A model generated the notes under the pieces. The model did no database searches and was not told the origin of the DNA. It saw only the letters and a program-made list of their open reading frames with translations. From Candidatus Heimdallarchaeota archaeon (GTDB lineage: Archaea; Asgardarchaeota; Heimdallarchaeia; Heimdallarchaeales; Kariarchaeaceae), in contig JALWRB010000313.1 of the NCBI GenBank assembly GCA_027077875.1, positions 1-52,924 of the forward strand: a stretch of 52,924 bases of DNA. Reading direction: 5' to 3'. This document shows, piece after piece, positions 46,906 through 49,236 of this stretch. The position numbers and the translations under genes were made by a program. How positions within the stretch are numbered: the stretch's first letter is position 1; each line of letters begins with the position of its first letter.

Positions 46906-49236
46906 CTATCTCTTTCTTCTGAGGATGACTCCAACTGCAATCATGGCGGCGAAGACAGGGAATATCTCAAGTGGCAATCCACCGGAAGTGGATGAGCTAT
47001 CTTCATCCGTGGTTGTAGCAGTAGAGATGGTGATTGAGATGGTGACAGTCGCCTCGTTCCCAGCGTTGTCTACGACAGTGAGAGTCACGGAGTAACTACC
47101 CTCTGCAGAGTAGGTGTGGAACACAGAGGTCGTACCGAGGACATTGTCGGTTGATCCGTCACCGTAGTCGAGAGTTGCAGTTTTAACACCACTTCCATCG
47201 TCAGAGAAGGAGTACTTGAACTCGACAACAAGGTCGGTGAGTGCAGCTCCATCGGATGGGGAGGACATCGATACGGTTGGGGCCGTAGAGTCCACAGTAA
47301 CAGTGTAGATGACCTCGGTCATACCTCCTGCAGCAGTCTCGATCTTGAGCGTGACATTGTACACTCCATCTGCGGAGTAGGTGTGAGTTGCATCACCAGA
47401 AGTGCCATTCAAGGTTTCCACGGTAGTGCCATCTGCCCAGTCGATGCTGACGGAGCTGACTGTACTGTCTGCACCATCGGTGGTGTAGGACAGTTGAACA
47501 TCTGCACCCTGATTGGTGTCACCTGTCAGTTCTCCTGTTGGGACCCCGTCCTTGGGCGTGAAGTTGTTTGAGCCCTGGGGATCGTACTGCTTGACCTGTG
47601 TGTTCAGACCTAGGTCGAAGTGGTAGAGAATGATCTGGGCATTACCCTCTTGTCCTGCAACGAGGACGTTACCTGCAATATCAACAAGGTTAATGGTGAT
47701 GGAGAATGTCCATGAACCGTTGGCAGCTGGAGCTGGGATGGATCCTGAGTAGTTGTACTCCATCCAGTTGGCCCCATCCCAGATACCGAAACCTACGACA
47801 TCCTTCGTGTTGGCATCAGAGGCAGCAAAGCTACCGGTGAAGCTCAAATCGAAGCTCCCGACATTGTAGACATCTCCAACGATGTCAGATGTCCAGACTA
47901 GACCGGCAACAAGTGCGTTGTTAGGAGAGAAGGCAGCACCTTCCCACCTACCAGCAGAACCGTCGTTGTAGTAGCCCTTGAACTGGGTCGTCTCCACCAT
48001 CACTGTGTAGTTGATGTAGAAGTATGCGACCTGTACATTTGTGAAGTTGGTGTAACCGTTGAAAGTGCCATCACCCTCAGCAGTTATATTGGCATAGTTG
48101 GTCAGGTTCTCCAGCTTGATCTGATAGAATGTGAAGGGAAGCTGACCGTCATCGGGGGTCCATGAAAGTGATGAGCCTGCATCATCACCCTGCAATTCAA
48201 GCGTGATTGAGCTCATCTTGGAGGCGAACGTGTCTGCACACTCAGTTGTGTTACAGGTGTTTAGGGAGAAGATTTGGTACCAGATAGCAATGTTATCACC
48301 GATGGATGCGCGGTACTGTGCACCTTTAGCTCCATCACCCTCAACTCTATCTACTTCCTTGGTTGCACCCTCTACATCATAGAGAGTCGGTTGGCTGAGC
48401 TGGAGGAAAACATTGGAAAGGATGTTATTGGATCCACCCTCGGACTTTGCCCAGTCCCCGTAAGCACCGATTTTGAACTCGAATGTAGCGTCGGGCATGG
48501 TGATATCCACGGAGTAATAAGTCACGTTGATATTAGAATCAACCTGAGTGAAGTCATAGTAGGTCATTGCGAATGTTCTATCTGTTATGTCCCACGTCAA
48601 ACCACCGATCGCACTAAGGTCTCCCACAAGGTAGAAGTCAGCAGAGGCGTTGACGACGTTAATGACCCGAGCGATAATTGTCACGGTTGTTCCAGGTTTG
48701 GCAAAGTACTTCTTTGCATCGCCGTTGTCACCAAAGTAGTTCCCACCAACTATGTCGTAGAGATCGGGAATCGGGTCTCCAATTGCAGTGAGTACCCAAT
48801 TTGAGAATGGTCCATCAGGGTGGTTCTCCCAAATTGCGTTTGTACCAGCATCGTCGTCAGCGTTTCTTGCCTTGAACTCACCACTCTCGTTGACAGTGAT
48901 GTTGACAGTCCAAAGAGTATGTGTGGCGTTGTACGCACTCGATGTGTTGAAAGCAGACCCAGTGGTCCAGTCCAGACCGTTGCCTGAACCCATGAGCCAT
49001 GGAGTATCACCATTGAGAGCTATGTATGATATGTTGACCTCAGTACCCTTAAGGTATCCATACTCGGAAGCTGTCGGGGATATACTGAGGAATACAGGGG
49101 CTCCGGATTGTGCCATTGGATTTATGGTGACATCCGGATTTGTCGTTATCTGAGCCGATGTGGCAGGTGCACTCCCCATTGCGAGAATAAAGACGAGTGA
49201 CCCCATCGTCAGAAACTTAATCATTCGATTGTTCAT
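46906..49236 (-). CDS. Non-catalytic surface protein: three CBM20-like starch-binding modules + two PKD domains + C-terminal anchor
   Basis: Three repeats of L.G...L.W / W(Y).V.I / FK / W...N. PKD-like DWADG..HTYSADG.Y.VTL and DYGDG..HTYSAEG.Y.VTL. Ends GLPLE, TM, RRKR. No catalytic GH motif recognised. Confidence 0.7.
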   Translation of the reverse strand: MNNRMIKFLTMGSLVFILAMGSAPATSAQITTNPDVTINPMAQSGAPVFLSISPTASEYGYLKGTEVNISYIALNGDTPWLMGSGNGLDWTTGSAFNTSSAYNATHTLWTVNITVNESGEFKARNADDDAGTNAIWENHPDGPFSNWVLTAIGDPIPDLYDIVGGNYFGDNGDAKKYFAKPGTTVTIIARVINVVNASADFYLVGDLSAIGGLTWDITDRTFAMTYYDFTQVDSNINVTYYSVDITMPDATFEFKIGAYGDWAKSEGGSNNILSNVFLQLSQPTLYDVEGATKEVDRVEGDGAKGAQYRASIGDNIAIWYQIFSLNTCNTTECADTFASKMSSITLELQGDDAGSSLSWTPDDGQLPFTFYQIKLENLTNYANITAEGDGTFNGYTNFTNVQVAYFYINYTVMVETTQFKGYYNDGSAGRWEGAAFSPNNALVAGLVWTSDIVGDVYNVGSFDLSFTGSFAASDANTKDVVGFGIWDGANWMEYNYSGSIPAPAANGSWTFSITINLVDIAGNVLVAGQEGNAQIILYHFDLGLNTQVKQYDPQGSNNFTPKDGVPTGELTGDTNQGADVQLSYTTDGADSTVSSVSIDWADGTTVETLNGTSGDATHTYSADGVYNVTLKIETAAGGMTEVIYTVTVDSTAPTVSMSSPSDGAALTDLVVEFKYSFSDDGSGVKTATLDYGDGSTDNVLGTTSVFHTYSAEGSYSVTLTVVDNAGNEATVTISITISTATTTDEDSSSTSGGLPLEIFPVFAAMIAVGVILRRKR

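Follow-up and report, generated by a model that had tools for sequence, protein, structure and literature searches.

A non-catalytic, cell-anchored archaeal surface protein with three tandem modules, a candidate alpha-glucan-capture partner of GH57 enzymes

The window analysed here is a 52,924-nucleotide stretch of DNA from Candidatus Heimdallarchaeota archaeon (Asgardarchaeota, order Heimdallarchaeales; GenBank assembly GCA_027077875.1, contig JALWRB010000313.1, positions 1 to 52,924 of the forward strand). The genome is archaeal, since genes for NMD3, RIO1 and a KRR1-type KH protein were present in the window. A minus-strand gene, hereafter the target, encodes an anchored surface protein of 776 residues in which three related modules in tandem precede two PKD domains, next to genes for glycoside hydrolases of family 57 (GH57) and an ABC transporter. 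Sequence comparison placed its module in an undescribed surface-protein family that is specific to the order and whose members are encoded beside hydrolases. With a probability of about 0.5, we read the target as a paralogue within this family that was retuned for the capture of alpha-glucans, in a role like that of SusE/F. A first-pass annotation, made from the sequence alone, had described positions 47902–49104 (residues 45–445 of the open reading frame, minus strand) as three CBM20-like modules of a catalytic-domain-free SusE/F analogue and had overlooked the family.

Domain anatomy and module repeat

The domain anatomy was observed directly (Table 1). The target is a secreted protein with a C-terminal anchor, and no catalytic family was found in it by Pfam or NCBIfam, in agreement with the first-pass annotation. 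PKD domains (PF18911 and PF00801) were the only Pfam families above cut-off; two copies exceeded the gathering scores (PKD_4, 63.5 bits; PKD, 41.2 bits) and matched each other by hhalign with P=2e-12. Judged by eye from the translation, the signal peptide has a basic n-region, a hydrophobic core and an A-x-A-like end, and it contains no lipobox cysteine. The C-terminal tail is of a type also found on the neighbouring GH57 enzyme and solute-binding protein.

The three tandem modules (M1, M2 and M3) were delimited by hmmsearch with a merged M1–M3 profile, and the profiles for profile–profile comparison were built from the three lineages described below. M1 aligned with M2 over 78 columns (hhalign P=0.001) and M2 with M3 over 100 columns (P=2.5e-4), while the direct comparison of M1 and M3 by hhalign reached no significance. 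The repeat proposed earlier is thus real, as is its position ahead of two PKD domains, and all of the motifs quoted for it were found in the protein. The pattern Y..G..V.I, L.G...L.W, aromatic-x-V/I-N/D-x-T, FK and W...N recurred, with substitutions, in nine modules of three lineages, and F78, K79, N103 and L106 (M1 numbering; the 'FK' and 'N..L' motifs) were invariant in 9/9. In a module tree, M1, M2 and M3 formed three well-supported clades, each spanning the three lineages, so that the modules were triplicated before these lineages split.

The modules are separated from the PKD domains by a beta-rich region, M4, that had been overlooked before. By hhalign it was unrelated to M1 (P=0.33), to the merged M1–M3 profile (P=0.65) and to CBM20 (P=0.19), it had no Pfam match, and its profile search of the PDB was empty. 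M4 was used as an internal negative control.

The protein contained 17 N-x-S/T sequons against 10.6 ± 2.8 expected, ten of them conserved. The excess fits an exposed archaeal glycoprotein, and from its sequence the target is probably an N-glycosylated, non-catalytic surface protein. The ten conserved sequons (residues 68, 103, 112, 196, 237, 377, 383, 397, 409 and 495; window 47002–49107) were kept across lineages sharing 43% identity. One conserved sequon per module lay inside a core strand motif (N-[IY]-T) and was retained in the out-group modules too. Several Asp, Glu and His residues were invariant in the alignment of the protein. An insertion specific to M3 carried a conserved Cys-x4-Cys (CNTTEC; C328 and C333; window 48238–48255), the only cysteines of the protein, which may form a disulfide loop.

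Conserved position ahead of GH57 genes

Synteny was likewise observed directly. The gene order transporter, target, GH57 gene or genes recurred on four contigs from metagenomes; counted with the window, they represent three lineages, and identity to the target was 70% and 43% in the other two. In all three, the target gene and a GH57 gene lay on one strand, the target 90–260 bp upstream of the GH57 gene, and the transporter was divergent from the target. Close and exhaustive homologue searches found five three-module family members, all in these three lineages. No homologue of the target was detected in GTDB species genomes by a pattern scan or in 60 relatives with a full N-terminal query, and a target-like gene was absent beside the GH57 orthologues of relatives whose locus is organised differently.

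The 203-bp divergent spacer (49237–49439) contained a TATA-like element, conserved in an alignment of the spacers of four loci, about 55 nt upstream of the target start codon. The element had one exact match in the window. A second conserved block, TTAATNATATCTATTC, was located near the transporter side of the spacer in the four loci. Both blocks are candidate promoter or regulator sites. Given the conserved gene order and the TATA-like element ahead of the target, the earlier description of this gene as leading the hydrolase arm was correct. It is presumably co-transcribed with the GH57 genes. Both downstream GH57 genes encode secreted proteins. The divergently encoded solute-binding protein, which is accompanied by permeases, gave weak NCBIfam matches to MalE and GanS.

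A module family restricted to the order

The distribution of the family was also observed directly. With the merged module profile, the module was also detected in further genomes of the order, and an extended profile found it in 43/47 genomes of the order and in 0/353 other genomes of the phylum, with matches in relatives down to E=1e-42. Three architectures share a common plan, in which a signal peptide is followed by at least one module, a middle region, a pair of PKD domains and the anchor. The C-terminal PKD–PKD–anchor halves of these proteins were collinear with that of the target (phmmer E from 1e-18 to 1e-5). We found no description of the one- and two-module proteins in the literature.

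In at least six genomes, the window's own among them, the gene for the one-module form (about 500 residues) lay directly downstream of a PmbA/TldD pair. In four genomes, again including the window's own, the gene for the two-module form (about 620 residues) lay immediately upstream of that for an S8 subtilase (about 1130–1200 residues) with a C-terminal anchor. Only the three-module form occurred in the starch-locus context. The lysine of the FK motif was invariant in the nine target modules and missing from the out-group modules.

Further features of the paralogue loci were recorded. One-module genes (G000:C203 (L143), L138, L141, L139, L140 and L137) always followed the PmbA/TldD metallopeptidase gene pair, and their products carried a 'VPFPFG'-type motif ahead of the transmembrane helix and basic tail, where the starch-locus proteins have a 'PL'-type tail. 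At the two-module loci (G000:C511 (L142 7700-13189), L136, L144 and L145), the two-module gene was preceded by a gene for a PCI/RING-type protein of about 690 residues.

Resemblance to starch-binding modules

Similarity to alpha-glucan-binding modules was found for M1 and M2, always below curated thresholds (23.3 bits for Pfam CBM_20, PF00686; 27 bits for X25_BaPul_like, PF22058). M1 matched CBM_20 with 16.2 bits (E=0.009), and its counterpart in the L005 lineage did so with 13 bits. M1 of the 43%-identical lineage matched only X25_BaPul_like (0.0019), AMPK1_CBM (0.018) and CBM_20 (0.09), all sub-threshold. M2 and M3 had no CBM_20 match in Pfam; M2 matched X25_BaPul_like at noise level (E=0.03), and X25 scores across the target modules were 14.8–18.7 bits. 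The weak matches to alpha-glucan carbohydrate-binding modules (CBMs) were restricted to M1 and M2 of the target: seven out-group modules, scanned in the same way, matched neither CBM_20 nor X25_BaPul_like nor AMPK1_CBM. In a six-frame search of the 3.9-Mb genome, the top CBM_20 match lay in the target gene (E=0.034). The Pfam families SusE and SusF gave no match at E<=10.

The sole PDB sequence match was 1ac0, the CBM20 of Aspergillus niger glucoamylase (E=0.089, from M1). Its alignment paired W90, K122 and W136 of M1 with W543, K578 and W590 of the glucoamylase starch-binding domain, which we take to be binding site 1 in the structures of Sorimachi et al. The equivalents of these residues were mostly retained in M2 and M3. 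The alignments that place W90/K122/W136 on site-1 residues were of marginal significance only (P from 2e-3 to 2e-4).

Against a profile of six real CBM20 sequences, the merged M1–M3 profile aligned in register over 60 columns (hhalign P=2.3e-4), as did M2 (P=4.8e-4), while M3 reached P=0.033 only; M1 aligned with the 1ac0 fragment alone at P=0.0017. None of 150 column-permuted nulls reached the CBM20 score of the merged profile or of M2, with z of about 8 for the merged profile. With a three-sequence profile of M1, the 1ac0 match was lost in the PDB search, and the match to the six CBM20 sequences was a 14-column, out-of-register one (P=0.025).

Several results weigh against reading the modules as starch-binding domains. 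No module passed a curated family cut-off, CBM_20, X25_BaPul_like and AMPK1_CBM all remaining below theirs, and PDB profile searches with single-module, merged and extended profiles were empty. The best-scoring negative control, in which the merged modules were compared with PKD2 of the same protein, reached P=0.0022, so that the CBM20 signal was only about tenfold better, and with a profile broadened to all of the module family the CBM20 similarity weakened to P=0.021. Noise as strong as E=6e-4 (a spurious TrfA match) was seen on an out-group module. The X25 model matched weakly (E from 4e-4 to 0.1) in 44/301 genomes of the phylum, about 15%, S8 subtilases included. Neither the window's own genome nor any of the 301 genomes contained a canonical CBM20. 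AlphaFold2 models, computed for M1+M2 and for M3+M4 from four-sequence alignments, were poor, with predicted local distance difference test (pLDDT) values of 51 and 40, respectively. Foldseek searches of the PDB with the M1+M2 model returned nothing at E<=0.001 and only generic matches to tandem immunoglobulin domains and antibody Fab fragments. Finally, the other family members adjoin proteases or peptidases and not carbohydrate genes, so that starch binding is not an intrinsic property of the module.

The X25 matches were dropped as support, since that model gives noise-level matches across the phylum and on a subtilase; weak X25 matches in these beta-rich surface proteins cannot be read as starch binding. 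In the structure prediction and Foldseek comparison that the first-pass annotation had proposed as a check, both low-pLDDT models were all-beta but unreliable, and the structural matches of M1+M2 were generic immunoglobulin-type tandems. The motif order, the weak matches and the in-register hhalign alignments bear out CBM20-like sequence features, whereas membership of the CBM20 clan is not established, given the sub-threshold matches, the empty PDB profile searches, the control at P=0.0022 and the poor models. The sequence evidence for CBM20 likeness is suggestive but sub-threshold.

Proposed function and alternative explanations

Under the reading that we favour, the C-terminal membrane anchor would hold the protein on the archaeal cell, and the two PKD domains and the beta region M4 would raise the three tandem modules off the membrane. 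Each family member is encoded beside a hydrolase: PmbA/TldD for the one-module form, a giant S8 subtilase for the two-module form and two GH57 alpha-glucanases for the three-module form. The family may consist of polymer-capture partners of cell-bound hydrolases. In the target paralogue, the module would have been triplicated and would have gained a Trp / Phe-Lys / Trp signature, which aligns with site 1 of CBM20. At the cell surface, the protein would bind alpha-glucan of the starch or glycogen type in a multivalent way and hand it on to the GH57 enzymes expressed with it, whose maltodextrin products would pass to the divergently encoded MalE-type ABC importer, a role equivalent to that of SusE/F in Bacteroides. 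Glycan binding and the role of the W/K/W residues are predictions. Conserved synteny, secretion and anchoring, the related modules, weak matches that all point in one direction and the hydrolase-linked paralogues argue for this reading at roughly even odds.

The same hydrolase neighbours would also fit a scaffold or holder, whose modules make protein–protein contacts and thereby organise, place or stabilise the surface hydrolase encoded next to it (GH57, or the S8 subtilase for the paralogue) in the envelope, and bind no polymer. We regard this as less likely, yet as a serious rival. Paralogues with the same module and PKD–anchor half adjoin S8 subtilases and PmbA/TldD genes in many genomes, so that the common theme is a hydrolase neighbour and not starch genes; the module is order-specific, and significant homology to carbohydrate-binding families was not found. 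A scaffold does not account, however, for the triplication found in the target, for its invariant signature of FK and Trp, which the protease-linked paralogues lack, or for the restriction of the weak alpha-glucan CBM matches to target modules. Moreover, PmbA/TldD proteins are normally cytoplasmic, so synteny with them need not mean a partnership at the surface. A generic glycoprotein of the cell surface, serving as an envelope component or in cell–cell or cell–particle adhesion, would share the beta modules, PKD domains, anchor and many sequons that are typical of archaeal envelope proteins, and no functional domain was recognised in the target. Its place in the starch locus would then have no functional meaning, yet the position beside GH57 and transporter genes is kept in three lineages sharing only 43% identity, and the gene is absent where the GH57 locus of relatives is organised differently, which makes this explanation improbable. 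Least probable by far is an unrecognised catalytic domain acting on alpha-glucans within the M3 insertions or M4. These regions amount to about 290 residues without assignment, with the conserved Cys pair and invariant Asp, Glu and His residues, but no catalytic family was matched in Pfam, NCBIfam or the PDB, the M3 insertions and M4 are short, predicted to be all-beta and poorly ordered, and the mature N-terminus is Q29, without the His1 of starch-active lytic polysaccharide monooxygenases (LPMOs). Support for an LPMO or other hidden enzyme was not found.

A separate question is the fold, that is, whether the whole module family consists of extremely divergent CBM20/CBM48/X25-superfamily domains descended from the starch-binding beta-sandwich, in which case the earlier homology claim would be literally right. 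The hhalign alignments to CBM20 were consistent in register for M1 (1ac0 fragment only), M2, M3 (weakly) and the merged profile, the empirical nulls backed their P-values, and M1 of the divergent lineage matched X25, CBM48-type and CBM20 models together. Set against this, every match was below cut-off, the three-sequence profile of M1 lost the signal, the controls reached P=0.002, AlphaFold2 recognised no familiar fold, and the signal shrank as family members were added, the reverse of what true homology usually gives. Such descent is possible, and we hold it to be doubtful. Equally tentative is the proposal that this Asgard order evolved its own anchored 'substrate-capture' partners for surface hydrolases from a module that either is no relative of known CBMs or can no longer be recognised as one. 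Giant subtilases would be served by one paralogue, and the target would have triplicated the module and convergently gained a CBM20-like Trp/Lys/Trp platform for GH57 amylases, as an independent archaeal counterpart of SusE/F.

Comparison with known systems

Non-catalytic surface glycan-binding proteins are central to starch capture in Bacteroides (Sus) and Ruminococcus (amylosome). SusE and SusF of Bacteroides thetaiotaomicron (PDB 4FE9) bind starch at the cell surface, are non-catalytic and contain two or three X25-type modules in tandem, and X25 modules have been documented in SusE/F, Sas20 and Sca5 (PMC9112005). Like SusE/F, the target is surface-tethered, has no detected catalytic domain, contains tandem beta-rich modules of about 110–165 residues and is encoded in an alpha-glucan locus together with a surface amylase and an importer; SusF and the target have three modules each. 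The two differ in anchor (an archaeal C-terminal transmembrane helix in the target, an N-terminal lipid on the outer membrane in SusE/F), in partner enzymes (GH57 versus GH13) and in partner transporter (an ABC system versus SusC/D), and the module relatives of the target are protease-linked. With secreted, anchored, non-catalytic tandem modules in an alpha-glucan locus, the functional analogy drawn in the first-pass annotation is reasonable in role and architecture, whereas homology was not borne out, a sequence relationship to SusE/F being undetectable.

The motif order L-x-G...W, W/Y-x-V-x-(I/T), F/Y-K and W-E...N agrees with that of CBM20 (PF00686; PDB 1ac0), whereas M2 and M3 are longer by 20–60% through insertions. 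Sas20 and Sca5 of the Ruminococcus bromii amylosome are likewise non-catalytic, with tandem beta-sandwich modules whose Trp platforms hold starch by surface amylases; for the target, the corresponding fold and binding are predictions. Sas20 and Sca5 belong to Gram-positive cohesin–dockerin assemblies, unlike the target. Their distant homology to X25 was reported at E=1e-6 (PMC9112005), against only 0.002–0.03 for the target, values equalled by noise controls. The one- and two-module proteins of the order are true homologues of the target, but they lack the FK lysine and occur in protease and not alpha-glucan contexts.

We found no description of an archaeal counterpart of SusE/F in the literature. 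If the target binds alpha-glucan, an uncultured Asgard-group archaeon would forage for extracellular polysaccharide by cell-bound capture, hydrolysis and import, and CAZy would gain a new carbohydrate-binding module family. If the target binds no glycan, motif patterns like those of CBMs would prove unreliable in beta-rich surface proteins of archaea. The wider family, whose paralogues accompany surface proteases and peptidases, points to a general means, so far undescribed, by which these archaea give surface hydrolases partner proteins.

Other features of the locus

The coordinates of the target, its parts and the neighbouring genes are given in Table 1. A cytoplasmic alpha-glucan phosphorylase and a GH77 4-alpha-glucanotransferase complete the locus. 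A scan of the window with Rfam returned nothing at gathering thresholds.

Table 1. Coordinates of the target gene, its parts and neighbouring features in the window (aa, amino acids)
Feature	Position	Strand	Evidence
Target gene: anchored surface protein, 776 aa, no catalytic domain detected	46906..49236	-	Open reading frame list, translation, Pfam, NCBIfam
Sec-type signal peptide, aa 1-28, MNNRMIKFLTMGSLVFILAMGSAPATSA	49153..49236	-	Read directly from translation
Module M1, aa 44-153; copy most like CBM20	48778..49107	-	hmmsearch envelope
Module M2, aa 154-280	48397..48777	-	hmmsearch envelope, hhalign
Module M3, aa 281-447; M1/M2-type module with two insertions	47896..48396	-	hmmsearch envelope, alignments, hhalign M2~M3
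M4, aa 448-572, 125 aa; beta-rich, unrelated to M1-M3	47521..47895	-	No Pfam match; hhalign; PDB profile search empty
Two PKD domains, about aa 573-745	47002..47520	-	Pfam PKD_4 E=1.9e-17, PKD E=1.7e-10, two stretches
Ser/Thr-rich linker, hydrophobic C-terminal helix and RRKR tail (membrane anchor or sorting signal)	46909..47001	-	Translation
Conserved TATA-like element, GCAAATGCTTTAAATTT (gene's strand; also given as GCTTTAAAT)	49292..49308	-	Spacer alignment of four loci
Downstream gene 1: secreted, anchored GH57 with Glucodextran_C, 1326 aa	42835..46815	-	Pfam Glyco_hydro_57 E=2.9e-49, Glucodextran_C E=1e-38
Downstream gene 2: GH57, 804 aa	40388..42802	-	Pfam Glyco_hydro_57 E=6.3e-27
Divergent gene: MalE-like ABC solute-binding protein, C-terminal anchor	49440..51005	+	Pfam SBP_bac_8, SBP_bac_1, E about 1e-26
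Cytoplasmic alpha-glucan phosphorylase and GH77 4-alpha-glucanotransferase	36752..40410	+	Pfam Phosphorylase/DUF3417, Glyco_hydro_77 E=1.4e-173

At the GH57 amylopullulanase-like loci of relatives (L118, L119 and L120; G003, G010 and G018), two tandem anchored solute-binding-like proteins of about 450–490 residues were encoded instead of the target. One of them may fill the capture role there. The closest relatives of the 1326-residue GH57/Glucodextran_C enzyme (42835–46815) among GTDB species were bacterial (Chloroflexota, Thermotogota and Spirochaetota), with only about 30% identity, which hints at an old horizontal exchange of this enzyme.

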